Positions 41,561 to 63,773 of a stretch of DNA of 64,000 bases are shown piece by piece. The stretch is from positions 57,612 through 121,611 of the forward strand of contig CAZERI010000002.1 of NCBI GenBank assembly GCA_964515545.1. Reading direction: 5' to 3'. A program made the translations under genes and the position numbers. The notes under the pieces are model-generated. The model saw only the letters and a program-made list of their open reading frames with translations. It searched no databases and was not told the DNA's origin. The stretch's first letter is position 1; each line of letters begins with the position of its first letter. Origin of the DNA: an uncultured Gammaproteobacteria bacterium. Its GTDB lineage: Bacteria; Patescibacteriota; Microgenomatia; Levybacterales; UBA12049.

Positions 41561-41839
41561 TTGACCTGTCCTTTCTGATTTGCTTTGAAAGAGCGATGGA
41601 CACAGTGTCCAGTCCCCATAGTATACAGGAATGAGGCCTTAAGTTCAAACTATAAGATGTAGGAGGAGAGACAGCAGATAAGCGTCACTTATAGGTAGTT
41701 GTGGTAATGTTTGCCTCAGGTATGGATTTCAGGTAAAATATAGTGCTGGCTAATTGCTTATTGCAAATGGTTAATAGTTTATAAATCAGGTATCCTATTT
41801 TGAACTATTAGCTATACGCTATTTGCTATTAACTAATAT

Positions 41840-41912
41840 GGCCCCATCGTCTAGTGGCCTAGGACACTGGATTCTCATTCCAGTAACCGGGATTCGAATT
41901 CCCGTGGGGTCA
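41840..41912 (+). tRNA. tRNA-Glu (anticodon CTC)
   Basis: Cloverleaf folded by hand. Acceptor GGCCCCA/TGGGGTC, D-arm GTCT-AGTGGCCTA-GGAC, anticodon stem CTGGA/TCCAG with loop TTCTCAT, T-arm CGGGA-TTCGAAT-TCCCG, discriminator A. No encoded CCA in this copy. Confidence 0.85.
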
Positions 41913-41913
41913 C
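41896..41913 (+). repeat. Direct repeat copy 1 (GAATTCCCGTGGGGTCAC), the 3' end of tRNA-Glu
   Basis: Exact 18-nt identity with 42276-42293. Confidence 0.85.
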
Positions 41914-41954
41914 TTCGGCAAGCTCAGTGCAAGCACAAATTAGATACTTATCTT

Positions 41955-42251
41955 ATGTGGTTTGTTTACATGCTTCTTTGTGATGAGAAAACTTTCTATA
42001 TAGGGATTTCTGACGACCTCAAAAATCGACTGTTCCAACATAAAAATAAACTAAATATTTCTACCAAAAAGTTTTCTGATTTTGATTTAGTTTATGCAGA
42101 AAAGTATCAGTCTAAATTCGAAGCTGCAAAGCGGGAAAAGCAGTTAAAAGGATGGTCTCATGCAAAGAAGCAGATGCTAATTGATGGAAAGCTTGGAATA
42201 AATGCTTGTACTGAGTTGGCGAAGGGTCTCGTTAGAGAATTAGAACTTTGA
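41955..42251 (+). CDS. GIY-YIG nuclease family protein (YhbQ/UPF0213-like, ~98 aa)
   Basis: MWFVYMLLCDEKTFYIGISDDLKNRLFQHKNK...FDLVYAEKYQSKFEAAKREKQLKGWSHAKKQ matches the GIY-YIG core (YVYIL.C.DG.LY.G.T.DL..RL..H ... E..A..RE.QIK.WSR.KK). The track ORF is artificially extended 5' through the tRNA. Confidence 0.8.
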   Translation: MWFVYMLLCDEKTFYIGISDDLKNRLFQHKNKLNISTKKFSDFDLVYAEKYQSKFEAAKREKQLKGWSHAKKQMLIDGKLGINACTELAKGLVRELEL

Positions 42252-42275
42252 GTTTACTCCGAGCAACGCCGAGGA

Positions 42276-42293
42276 GAATTCCCGTGGGGTCAC
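42276..42293 (+). repeat. Direct repeat copy 2 (GAATTCCCGTGGGGTCAC), followed by CA to give an encoded CCA
   Basis: Exact 18-nt identity with 41896-41913. Upstream flank CCGAGGA resembles a degenerate T-arm (CCGGGAT in the tRNA). Confidence 0.85.
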
Positions 42294-42316
42294 CAGTATG
42301 ACGGTAGTCTTACATA

Positions 42317-42739
42317 TTAATAGATATTTTTAAGGAAAAATCCTCGCACAGTTTTAACGCTGAAATACAAAGCAAAAAGGAAAAGGACAGCCTGTATTTG
42401 ATTTGCCCAGAAATATAAATTTACTATTGAATAAGTAATATAGCTATCGATAGCATAATATCCAAAAATAAAAACTCCACCCAACGCAATAATAGTATCT
42501 AGTATAGCAACCCATTTTTGAGCAGGATTCGTTGCTCCAGCTACTATCCCTAAGGCAAGAACTATTATTAATGCTAGATAAGTCGATACTGGAATATAAT
42601 CCGTGAGAAAAGGAAGTAATAACAGCATTAAAATGGCAGATGTTAGATAGAGTATACGCACTATATCACCATAGTAATGATGCATATTCTTTAATAAGTT
42701 TAAAAATGTAAGTTGTGTGTCCATCATGCTCACTCCCAT
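42317..42739 (-). CDS. Hypothetical integral membrane protein (4 TM)
   Basis: Hydrophobic ORF. I chose the internal start (MGVSMMD...) to avoid a 74-nt overlap with the cupin gene; start uncertain. Confidence 0.45.
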   Translation of the reverse strand: MGVSMMDTQLTFLNLLKNMHHYYGDIVRILYLTSAILMLLLLPFLTDYIPVSTYLALIIVLALGIVAGATNPAQKWVAILDTIIALGGVFIFGYYAIDSYITYSIVNLYFWANQIQAVLFLFALYFSVKTVRGFFLKNIY

Positions 42740-63033: not shown

Positions 63034-63773
63034 AGTTATCAATAGTTATACCAGTCTATAATGAAGAGAGGACAGTAGCGGAAGTAATAAGAGAAGTGAG
63101 TGATGTCCTAATTGACGATCCTTCGACGAGCTCAGGACAAGTTAAGAAGGAAATTATCGTTGTTAACGATGCCTCTAGTGATAAAACAGGTGAGATCCTC
63201 CAGAGATTAGAGAAATCAAATAAAGATCTCGTTGTGGTGACGCATGCGCAAAATAAAGGGAAAGGTGCTGCTGTCCGAACCGGATTTGCTAAAGCCACAG
63301 GAGATTATATCGTTATTCAGGATGCTGATTTAGAGTATAACCCCGATTATTTTAAAGTTCTCCTTAAACCTATCCTCTCAGGTAAGACGCAGGTGGTATA
63401 TGGAACCCGACTTAAAAAGCTTCCTAAGCTTACTCAACATGGTACGATGGGTAAGACCCGTTTTCTCCTCCATTTTTTCGGTAATAGGTTCCTTAGTCTT
63501 GTTACCAGTATTCTTTATTTACAGTGGGTTACTGATATGGAAACCTGTTATAAGATATTCCCTCGAGAGTTCCTTAGGACAACGACACTTCATGGCAATG
63601 GGTTTAATTTCGAACCGGAAATTACTGCTAAGCTGATCAAGGCTGGTTACCATATCGTTGAAATACCTATCACTACTAAGCCAAGAGGATATGATGATGG
63701 TAAAAAGCTCCAGACAGTCCCCGAAGGAATTGAAGCAATAAAAACATTATTTAAATATCGTTTTAGCAAATGA
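63030..63773 (+). CDS. GT2 polyprenol-phosphate sugar synthase-like glycosyltransferase (DPM1-type)
   Basis: LSIVIPVYNEERTV...IVVNDASSDKT...QDADLEYNPDYF; 247 aa. Confidence 0.85.
   Translation: MKLSIVIPVYNEERTVAEVIREVSDVLIDDPSTSSGQVKKEIIVVNDASSDKTGEILQRLEKSNKDLVVVTHAQNKGKGAAVRTGFAKATGDYIVIQDADLEYNPDYFKVLLKPILSGKTQVVYGTRLKKLPKLTQHGTMGKTRFLLHFFGNRFLSLVTSILYLQWVTDMETCYKIFPREFLRTTTLHGNGFNFEPEITAKLIKAGYHIVEIPITTKPRGYDDGKKLQTVPEGIEAIKTLFKYRFSK

Follow-up and report, generated by a model that had tools for sequence, protein, structure and literature searches.

A nuclease-encoding cassette at tRNA 3′ ends of Patescibacteria, a candidate site-specific mobile element

Free-standing GIY-YIG homing genes, such as SegB in the tRNA gene cluster of phage T4 (PMC2988022, PMC13096335), are small selfish cassettes whose sole product is a GIY-YIG nuclease. 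Integrase-encoding islands and prophages at tRNA 3′ ends leave the tRNA intact, are flanked by a repeat of its 3′ end and can pile up behind one tRNA. Here we analyse a cassette with likenesses to both, found in a stretch of 64,000 nucleotides (nt) from contig CAZERI010000002.1 of an uncultured member of the Levybacterales (the window). The cassette lies directly behind a tRNA-Glu(CUC) gene, encodes a GIY-YIG nuclease of 98 amino acids (aa) and ends in an exact copy of the last 18 nt of that gene. On balance we lean towards reading it as a widespread, Patescibacteria-restricted, nuclease-only mobile element specific for tRNA 3′ ends, with a mechanism that we infer from its parts, because it forms a bounded, oriented and recurrent unit with inverted hairpin ends, a selected nuclease, empty sites, remnants and tandem copies.

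The resemblance to homing genes includes the association with tRNA genes, patchy presence and an expected spread through break repair and flanking homology. The proteins differ: enzymes of the Seg and I-TevI type belong to the UvrC and homing-endonuclease lineage and carry DNA-binding modules, whereas the cassette protein is of the Slx1/UPF0213 type and consists of the catalytic domain only. The cassette also has hairpins in inverted orientation at its ends, a duplicated target segment of 18 nt that is maintained and helices that run the width of its open reading frame (ORF), none of which is known from homing genes. Mitochondrial free-standing homing genes inserted at gene 3′ ends, such as that at atp6 of Allomyces, offer a parallel, with a GIY-YIG ORF at the 3′ end of the gene, an intact copy upstream and a duplicated 3′ fragment downstream. 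There the fragment is a decaying relic of variable length, whereas that of the cassette is fixed, maintained and abuts a conserved hairpin.

Integrase islands and prophages differ from the cassette in that the latter has no tyrosine or serine recombinase, measures 380 bp and keeps its repeat boundaries at tRNA positions 57–74 at every tRNA type. DNA transposons share with it inverted ends, an unusually long target-derived repeat and ORF-less miniatures and, in the case of casposons, a preference for tRNA 3′ ends. Casposons can target such ends with duplications of 14–15 bp. The cassette differs from transposons and casposons by having no DDE, HUH, serine, tyrosine or Cas1 enzyme and by occurring in one orientation only, and a hydrolytic nuclease alone cannot carry out strand transfer. 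In the same bacterial group, GIY-YIG ORFs have been described in rRNA-gene insertions outside both intron groups, I and II (Tsurumaki et al. 2024, PMC11270868). Those insertions likewise place GIY-YIG genes in stable-RNA genes; that report does not mention tRNA or describe the cassette architecture, and the examined cassette loci differ in that none contains an rRNA motif. Full-text literature searches found no published description of the cassette. It misses a defining feature of each class: the recognition domain of homing genes, the integrase of integrative elements, the transposase of transposons, and the attC sites and IntI of integrons. In part it resembles all of them, as a putative selfish, site-specific cassette that encodes a nuclease, and there is a real chance that its mechanism is new in kind.

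A recurrent unit behind tRNA genes

The tRNA-Glu(CUC) gene of the window is complete (41840–41913, plus strand; ARAGORN), matches Rfam RF00005 at 41840–41912 with 57.5 bits and is the only tRNA that ARAGORN calls in the 64 kb. It ends with the discriminator A41912 and C41913, and an encoded CCA is missing. Its tRNA positions 57–74, from T-loop G57 to C74 (the proximal copy, or U-frag; 41896–41913, plus strand), recur exactly at 42276–42293 on the same strand (the distal copy, or D-frag). This 18-mer, GAATTCCCGTGGGGTCAC, has two exact occurrences in the window and still two when three mismatches are allowed, against a chance expectation of 0.03 matches; two were reached in none of 100 shuffles. 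The proximal copy is followed by TTCGGC and the distal copy by CA (42294–42295, plus strand), so that ...GGGGTCACCA, with which eight uninterrupted homologous tRNA-Glu genes also end, is formed at the distal copy only. The CA is probably the original end of the tRNA gene; its A (42295) is a G in one strain.

Between the copies lies the ORF of 98 aa (41955–42251, plus strand) for a stand-alone GIY-YIG nuclease, whose PF01541 match scores 61.7 bits, well over the curated threshold of 22.6 (E = 8e-17). These elements had been named in a preliminary description of the locus made from the letters alone. ARAGORN and Rfam confirm its tRNA-Glu and Pfam its nuclease gene, and the 18-bp direct repeat of the tRNA 3′ end, with CCA at the distal copy only, stands as described and is no common repeat within the 64 kb. 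Public gene calls give the window protein 137 aa from a TTG start at 41823 (41823–42251), reading through the tRNA gene, and the calls for many relatives are likewise 20–40 codons overlong and run through the tRNA. A scan of 41600–42450 found no terminator-like site and, between tRNA and ORF, no promoter-like site; because of the latter, the two are probably co-transcribed.

A scan of one genome per species yielded 473 loci encoding relatives of the protein, of which we examined the best 80, several of them cut by contig ends. The search was made with the GIY-YIG protein, so every collected cassette carries a GIY-YIG ORF. Relatives number in the hundreds and come nearly all from assemblies of Patescibacteria (the candidate phyla radiation, CPR), including Levybacteria, Gottesmanbacteria, Roizmanbacteria, Paceibacteria and others. 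A viral contig collection contained none, so phage carriage was rejected.

In 39 of the 80 loci a tRNA on the same strand ends 37–136 nt ahead of the ORF, with a unit of about 380 bp directly behind it; window positions 41911–42293 are one copy of this unit, whose ORF measures 93–104 aa across the family. The tRNAs occupied belong to eight amino-acid types (Glu(CUC/UUC), Lys(CUU), Asn, Arg(UCU), four Ser isoacceptors, Gln(UUG/CUG), Tyr and His), and the only orientation seen is that of the tRNA. An exact direct repeat flanks the ORF in 40 loci, with a length of 16–20 nt save for two loci with 47 and 51 nt. Each repeat is the 3′ end of that locus's own tRNA, starting at T-loop position 57–59 (GAATCC...) and ending at C74 or the following A. 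Judged by these sequences, the arrangement in the window is one instance of a family-wide rule and no accident of one locus.

At least two further loci (L020 and L066) have a tRNA-Asn with an anticodon-loop intron of about 190 nt that default ARAGORN misses, and three more (L022, L026 and L033) share the same tRNA 3′ part with inconsistent intron calls. The insertion, in tRNA-Asn(GUU) at L020:2540–2940 and L066:2540–2940 and probably in the other three as well, resembles a group I intron core (AAGGTTCAGAGACTA ... GATATAGTCC) and is called by ARAGORN only with introns allowed.

The upstream tRNA-Glu of the window is intact; to mature, it must undergo 3′ trimming and the addition of CCA. The same goes for most other tRNAs of these genomes, since only 3 of 21 cassette-free tRNAs in the examined loci encode CCA. 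Many cassette-free tRNA genes (loci L005–L080) have C-A directly behind the discriminator.

The cassette encodes no integrase, transposase or reverse transcriptase, its only ORF being the GIY-YIG gene, and among ten genes that surround it in the window none encodes an integrase, a transposase, a reverse transcriptase or a recombinase domain; the absence of an integrase noted in the preliminary description holds for the surroundings of the cassette. Two explanations had been offered there. The first, the footprint of an integrase element that entered the tRNA 3′ end and lost all but one gene, fits the tRNA 3′-end repeat and a CCA found only distally, which together give the classical attL/attR picture. 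That explanation is effectively refuted by about 40 independent loci with the same 380-bp content, conserved ends and a selected ORF, by repeat boundaries constant at about 57 to 74, by the lack of an integrase or a remnant of one in the cassette and the ten surrounding genes, and by a distal copy that is maintained and not decaying. The second, a nuclease cassette that targets the tRNA 3′ end, is the one favoured by the comparison, in which the minimal unit stands behind many tRNAs that each have a matching repeat, and related lineages have empty sites.

An Slx1-like nuclease within a folded cassette

Across 30 family sequences the residues Y15, R25, H29 and E61 never vary and Y5 hardly does; by analogy, these five would be the catalytic residues. 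The closest solved structures by sequence are the UPF0213 proteins 1zg2 and 1ywl (hmmsearch, E = 9e-10 and 7e-8). An AlphaFold model (pLDDT 80; strand and helix order E-E-H-E-H-H-H) has the GIY-YIG fold, a sheet of three strands with helices on its flanks, and matches 1zg2, 1ywl and the nuclease domain of Slx1 with a Foldseek probability of 1.00, UPF0213 and then Slx1 ranking above UvrC. The catalytic domain fills nearly the whole protein and leaves only a low-confidence C-terminal helix; a DNA-recognition module of the homing-endonuclease kind was not found. On sequence and predicted fold, the protein is an Slx1/UPF0213-branch GIY-YIG nuclease from which auxiliary domains are absent. Ratios of nonsynonymous to synonymous substitution (dN/dS) of 0.04–0.16 between family members indicate strong purifying selection.

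Slx1 is a structure-specific endonuclease that acts on branched DNA. In prokaryotes its branch is regarded as one of minimal, vertically inherited housekeeping enzymes, and selfish GIY-YIG enzymes derive from another, UvrC-like lineage (PMC1564403). A tRNA-specific cassette on the Slx1/UPF0213 lineage is unexpected for this reason.

The ends of the cassette were defined in an alignment of 33 complete cassettes. The left end (LE; CAC-TTCGGCAAGCTCAGTGCAAGC, 41911–41934, plus strand) matches the family consensus without a mismatch; behind the tRNA end this consensus reads (CA)CTTCGGCAAGCTCAGTGCAAGC, and its columns are invariant or nearly so. CACT at 41911–41914 pairs with AGTG at 41926–41929 to form the LE stem, the first three nt of which overlap the tRNA end, and 15–30 variable nt separate LE from the ORF start. 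Behind the stop codon, the right end takes the family form GTTTAC-NNNN-GA-GC...GC-C-GA-N'N'N'N'. In the window this is a hairpin at 42257–42276 (plus strand; CTCC-GA-GC-aac-GC-C-GA-GGAG) composed of a variable 4-bp stem, a tandem GA and a GC stem, and the distal repeat begins with the final base of this hairpin. Compensatory changes occur at all six pairs tested (for example CCCT/AGGG, CTCC/GGAG, TGGT/ACCA and TATT/AATA), RNAalifold recovers the hairpin independently, and 98.5% of its cells in the alignment are paired; it is the best-supported structural element of the cassette.

Taken from the minus strand, LE (CACT-GA-GC-TT-GCC-GA-AGTG) shows the motif of the plus-strand right hairpin, so that the two cassette ends are true inverted repeats of a hairpin. 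Meaningful copies of the motif in the window are confined to 42257–42276 (plus strand) and 41911–41929 (minus strand). A further minus-strand match at 63119–63137 (TCCT-GA-GC-TC-GTC-GA-AGGA) falls inside a glycosyltransferase ORF and was judged to be due to chance. The preliminary description had taken CCGAGGA, ahead of the distal copy, for a degenerate T-arm; this was mistaken, and the letters are the 3′ strand of the conserved hairpin at 42257–42276. A second, degenerate tRNA gene at 42200–42295, which might have accounted for the repeat, is found by neither ARAGORN nor Rfam, and no second tRNA, intact or degenerate, was detected there or in 12 related loci at E ≤ 5; the flank is the right hairpin.

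The pairing extends into the ORF. An inner copy of the right end (GCTTGTACTGAGTTGGCGAAGG, 42204–42225, plus strand; codons N-A-C-T-E-L-A-K), which encodes the C-terminal helix of the protein, is complementary to LE and pairs with it in both the minimum-energy fold and RNAalifold, with 92% of cells paired and G-U alternating with G-C. Opposite the G positions of LE the ORF partner toggles between U and C, which toggles Ala with Val and Phe with Leu in the protein. G-U cells outnumber A-C cells by 85 to 18, so that the plus strand is the folding strand, either as transcript or as single-stranded DNA. Two internal helices start within 41973–41996 (plus strand), where codon constraint and pairing mark their 5′ strands. 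In helix H4, codons 7–9 (CTTCTTTGT; also as CTTCTTTGC) pair with codons 70–72 (GCAAAGAAG, 42162–42170, plus strand), the 3′ strand being supported by codon constraint, RNAalifold and the minimum-energy fold. In helix H5, codons 10–14 (ATCAGAAAACTTTT) pair with codons 38–42 (AAAAGTTTTCTGAT; AAAAAGTTTTCTGAT, 42066–42080, plus strand), supported by codon constraint and by pairing in the alignment. The internal helices have 93% and 85.5% of their cells paired, with some compensatory changes.

Codon choice follows these helices. In counts over up to 78 family sequences, Leu7 is CTT in 77 of 78 and Leu8 is CTT in 69 of 71; Thr13 ACT, Ser41 TCT and Ala70 GCA are nearly fixed, and Lys39, Lys71 and Lys72 are AAG where other Lys codons are mostly AAA. 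Synonymous codons are thus fixed by nucleic-acid pairing through the ORF, which makes it a clear example of such constraint on synonymous sites. The whole nested structure is 90.5% paired in the alignment, against 39–48% when the partners are slid by one to three columns, and the observed covariation exceeds that of all 500 shuffles. For the window cassette, the fold has z-scores of −2.8 (plus strand) and −2.65 (minus strand) relative to shuffled sequences.

Rfam gave no match overlapping the cassette, either in the window at the gathering threshold or in 12 related cassettes at E ≤ 5. Known ribozymes and introns were rejected on this ground and by eye, the CUGA..GC..CGAA core having neither the G8 nor the A9 of the hammerhead; also by eye, the 4-bp stem does not form a bulge-helix-bulge motif. 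LE occurs in tandem, in 3–5 copies with a period of 23–24 nt, between tRNA and ORF at L058:2900–2970, L075:2867–2980, L073:2888–2990 and L077:2870–2990. LE is interrupted by an insertion of 20–25 nt in L005, L021 and L026.

Empty sites, turnover and the distal copy

The uninterrupted sequence GGGATTCGAATTCCCGTGGGGTCACCA, which is impossible in an occupied locus, occurs in eight metagenome contigs (L081–L088). All eight carry a complete tRNA-Glu with encoded CCA (...TCACCA) and no cassette. An empty tRNA-Glu site in relatives, which the preliminary description had proposed to look for, was therefore found and ends in CCA, between lineages only. In L086 the tRNA is 95% identical to that of the window, including 11 nt of leader, and a glycosyltransferase gene lies about 115 nt behind it; the window has this gene 3 kb downstream (65% nucleotide identity). 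L014 shares the glycosyltransferase gene yet carries the cassette. Because L086 and L014 share this neighbour and differ in the cassette, its presence is patchy among related lineages. The ancestral tRNA gene seems to have ended in CCA, which would place the insertion point between C74 and C75, or after A73, since LE also begins with C.

Several loci show signs of turnover of the unit. LE stands directly behind the distal copy in L010 and L027, giving the repeats of 47–51 nt; a right end and tRNA copy precede LE in L031, L076 and L080, and LE is tandemly repeated in L058, L073 and L075. Two copies behind different tRNAs occur within one assembly twice (L028/L055 and L075/L076). In 26 of 42 cases a cassette shares its tRNA type with its closest relative by protein, where chance would give 21%, and the window cassette, at tRNA-Glu, is the closest relative of one at tRNA-Lys (L011, 75% identity). 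Lineages thus usually keep their tRNA but switch repeatedly. ORF-less miniatures lie behind tRNA-Lys(UUU) on the minus strand at L012:900–1006 and L019:1740–1840, each consisting of a left end, about 35 nt, a right end and a tRNA copy. Behind tRNA-Glu(CUC) in L013, positions 1766–1810 hold a tRNA-His-like 3′ fragment and a His-type variant of the left end (GGTCACCC-ATTCGGAAGCTCA), as if a cassette of another lineage had left a remnant at this Glu tRNA.

One strain variant, L090, may carry a footprint of transfer. Compared with the window, it has a tract of 677 nt (41618–42295: upstream spacer, tRNA and cassette) without substitutions, and the flanks differ at 14 of 1518 and 18 of 831 positions. 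The clean tract ends exactly at the distal copy, the first right-hand difference being at 42295. Its edge may be a gene-conversion boundary, and the tract is no more than suggestive of recent transfer. In a second population (P0060, tRNA-Gln, L093–L102), the stretch without differences runs on for 22 nt past the copy and no such sharp edge is seen.

These signs of turnover bear on an alternative in which the cassette is a domesticated resident of the tRNA transcription unit, now immobile and retained for a host role such as Slx1-like repair or RNA metabolism, with the helices and the distal copy acting as processing, stability or translation-control signals of a tRNA–mRNA co-transcript. The constant tRNA orientation with no promoter-like site in between, the strong selection on the protein, a plus strand that folds as expected of RNA and the fixation of the cassette in four same-species samples would all suit such a role, as would the standing of prokaryotic Slx1-like proteins as vertical housekeeping nucleases (PMC1564403). 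We nevertheless consider domestication unlikely, given that the unit lies behind eight tRNA types and that even closely related proteins have changed theirs, and given an assembly with copies at two tRNAs (L028 and L055), tandem junctions and ORF-less remnants, and the lack of the cassette at the same tRNA in related lineages. A host RNA signal would also leave a new exact 18-nt copy at each tRNA unexplained.

The distal copy evolves in step with its tRNA. Orthologous locus pairs were sought by flank identity, for which AT-rich flanks give 50–60% background identity, and only L004/L007 proved usable. The synonymous divergence (dS) of this pair is 0.65, and that between the window and its closest relatives ranges from 0.96 to more than 1.8, so that synonymous sites are saturated. 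Despite this saturation, about 40 loci have a distal copy identical to the end of the tRNA beside it, and differences between hosts are mirrored in both copies: in the window both read GAATTCCCG..., in L014 both read ACTTCCGG.... The neutral probability of 18 unchanged sites at a dS of 0.65 is about 1e-5. Identity to the tRNA alongside saturated synonymous sites in the ORF implies that the distal copy is selected or regularly regenerated and is no passive scar. The preliminary description had the original tRNA end displaced to the far junction; passive displacement is inadequate for a copy kept identical over such divergence.

The same holds where tRNA and cassette are apart. In L009 and L068 the tRNA lies 1.8 and 3.2 kb off, across other genes, and the distal copy matches that tRNA and not the sequence beside LE; in L013 it matches a tRNA 1.2 kb away but for one extra G. 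In the ORF-less miniatures L019 and L012, the distal copy has 1 and 6 mismatches, respectively.

A copy that follows a distant tRNA invites comparison with guide sequences. In IS200/IS605 elements, the structured guide RNA of TnpB overlaps the 3′ end of the ORF and the right end of the element and is followed by 16–20 nt of target-identical flank. The cassette resembles TnpB elements in layout and in the proposed role of keeping the element at, or returning it to, its site; it differs in having a nuclease of another fold, about fourfold smaller than TnpB, and in having neither a HUH transposase nor any sign of guide use. The distal 18 nt might by this analogy be a nucleic-acid guide, with the structured cassette transcript or single strand as the scaffold that directs the nuclease to cassette-free tRNA genes. 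A scaffold overlapping the ORF 3′ end and the right end and followed by a flank of 17–18 nt, much as in TnpB guide RNA, would agree with this, as would a protein without a DNA-binding domain and a distal copy that tracks a non-adjacent tRNA and decays in ORF-less copies. We regard a guide as very unlikely all the same. We know of no GIY-YIG enzyme that is nucleic-acid-guided, 98 aa is very small to hold a guide–target duplex, and the copy is in tRNA sense and also matches the occupied site, so that self-cleavage would have to be avoided. A role as a homology arm accounts equally for everything in favour of a guide.

Possible mechanism and cassette arrays

If the cassette is a mobile element, its nuclease would act on the 3′ region of the tRNA gene or on branched or hairpin structures of the cassette ends, and so drive insertion or homing, and the upstream tRNA would stay functional throughout. 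Two forms of such a mechanism can be envisaged. In the first, staggered cuts at 56/57 and 74/75 followed by repair synthesis would create an 18-nt target-site duplication at each insertion. In the second, the 18 nt would be a right-hand homology arm carried by the element, so that tRNA sequence stands on both sides of the cassette; after a break in an empty tRNA gene, repair could then copy the cassette in whatever DNA lies downstream. The second form would account for the conservation of the copy, its covariation with the tRNA and its decay upon loss of the ORF. An own exact repeat at each tRNA is expected of a target-site duplication and equally of a carried, selected copy.

Through the hairpin ends and the helices spanning the ORF, both tRNA copies would come to lie side by side where a long stem begins. 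These ends and helices are plausible substrates of the nuclease or devices for synapsis, since the protein has no DNA-binding domain and is Slx1-like. A bolder version of the mobile cassette, which strikes us as possible rather than probable, has the folded nucleic acid of the element, and not a protein domain, provide recognition and draw the ends together, the 18 nt being a programmable targeting or homology segment of a new class of mobile element. A branched substrate would then be presented to the Slx1-type nuclease, and retargeting would come about by changing the 18 nt; in its strongest form the segment would be a true guide.

Several observations weigh against mobility. No cleavage, excision or insertion event was observed. 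Four samples with the window's species, SRR27900776, SRR24111707, DRR784974 and SRR30183947, all carry the cassette in identical form, so that it is fixed among them; an empty and a filled site were not found within one species, polymorphism being seen between lineages only. Its divergence between the window and L014 is about that of the neighbouring genes, as would also be expected if it had long been inherited vertically. It is not obvious how a catalytic domain of 98 aa would recognise a specific sequence, and 18 nt is short for RecA-dependent homology. Finally, about 24 of the 80 loci have no adjacent tRNA and need a secondary explanation, namely islands inserted between tRNA and cassette.

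In these tRNA-less loci the sequence ahead of LE matches the distal copy in the last 6–8 nt only, and in about 20 loci a site of the form 'GTTC + 22 nt' takes the place of the tRNA ahead of LE. L068 (60–4750) gives an indication of its origin. There, tRNA-Gln is followed by blocks of accessory genes (hydrolases, a peptidase S51 and an MFS transporter), each of which ends in a tRNA-3′-like site, GGTTCYGACATAGTCC...CAAC, and the GIY-YIG cassette is one unit of the array. A segment of 101 nt, comprising the tRNA end and its flank, is repeated exactly at a distance of 3202 nt. Because the same site ends the other gene blocks of L068, the 'GTTC + 22 nt' site probably belongs to islands inserted between tRNA and cassette. 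With a pre-LE site that is probably island-derived, the tRNA-less loci do not help to tell a target-site duplication from a carried copy.

The arrays also raise the possibility that the cassette is passive and is moved in trans by a site-specific recombinase that uses tRNA-3′-end-like sites, the GIY-YIG gene being cargo or an addiction module and the hairpin with the tRNA copy a recombination site, as in integrons or integrative islands. Integron cassettes likewise hold one promoterless ORF and an imperfect palindrome that keeps its structure while its sequence varies, and they form arrays behind an anchor. The cassette differs from them in having a tRNA end as anchor, a further motif, inverted, at the 5′ side and the anchor sequence copied within the cassette, and in the lack of integron parts: attC core sites are absent from the right hairpin, whose core is GA-GC...GC-C-GA, and IntI was not seen in the examined loci, whole genomes not having been searched. 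The L068 array with its blocks ending in tRNA-3′-like sites, the roughly 20 loci with a 'GTTC + 22 nt' site ahead of LE and a right hairpin that conserves structure over sequence, as attC sites do, speak for passive movement. Against it, neither the ten genes around the cassette in the window nor eight genes from the arrays and islands of L068, L009 and L013 include a recombinase, an integrase, a transposase or a reverse transcriptase, a search that did not extend to whole genomes; the ORF is always GIY-YIG, although the loci were collected by that protein; and the conserved ends are specific to the GIY-YIG unit, other array units ending differently. We therefore think movement in trans rather improbable.

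Should the cassette be mobile, the Slx1-like branch of GIY-YIG enzymes would have a selfish, site-specific lifestyle, in contrast to the housekeeping view (PMC1564403). A 98-aa domain would then target tRNA 3′ ends precisely, helped by the folding of the nucleic acid and by a copy of 18 nt of the target, and would make a minimal system that can be tested and might be reprogrammed. Mobility would also explain the small 'GIY-YIG family protein' genes that stand beside tRNAs in CPR genomes and are often called 20–40 codons too long, and within these reduced genomes the 3′ ends of tRNA genes would stand out as hot spots of insertion.

A second, distant GIY-YIG family (31–45% identity) lies immediately upstream of tRNA genes at L023:2560–2960, L046:1886–2189, L078:2656–2959 and L018:1491–1818. 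Its member in L023 measures 72 aa (PF01541, E = 4e-15), and there the tRNA leader and the first 10 nt of the tRNA (AAAATTGTGAGCACRATCCGCAGTGG) are duplicated beyond the ORF, in a mirror image of the 3′ cassette.

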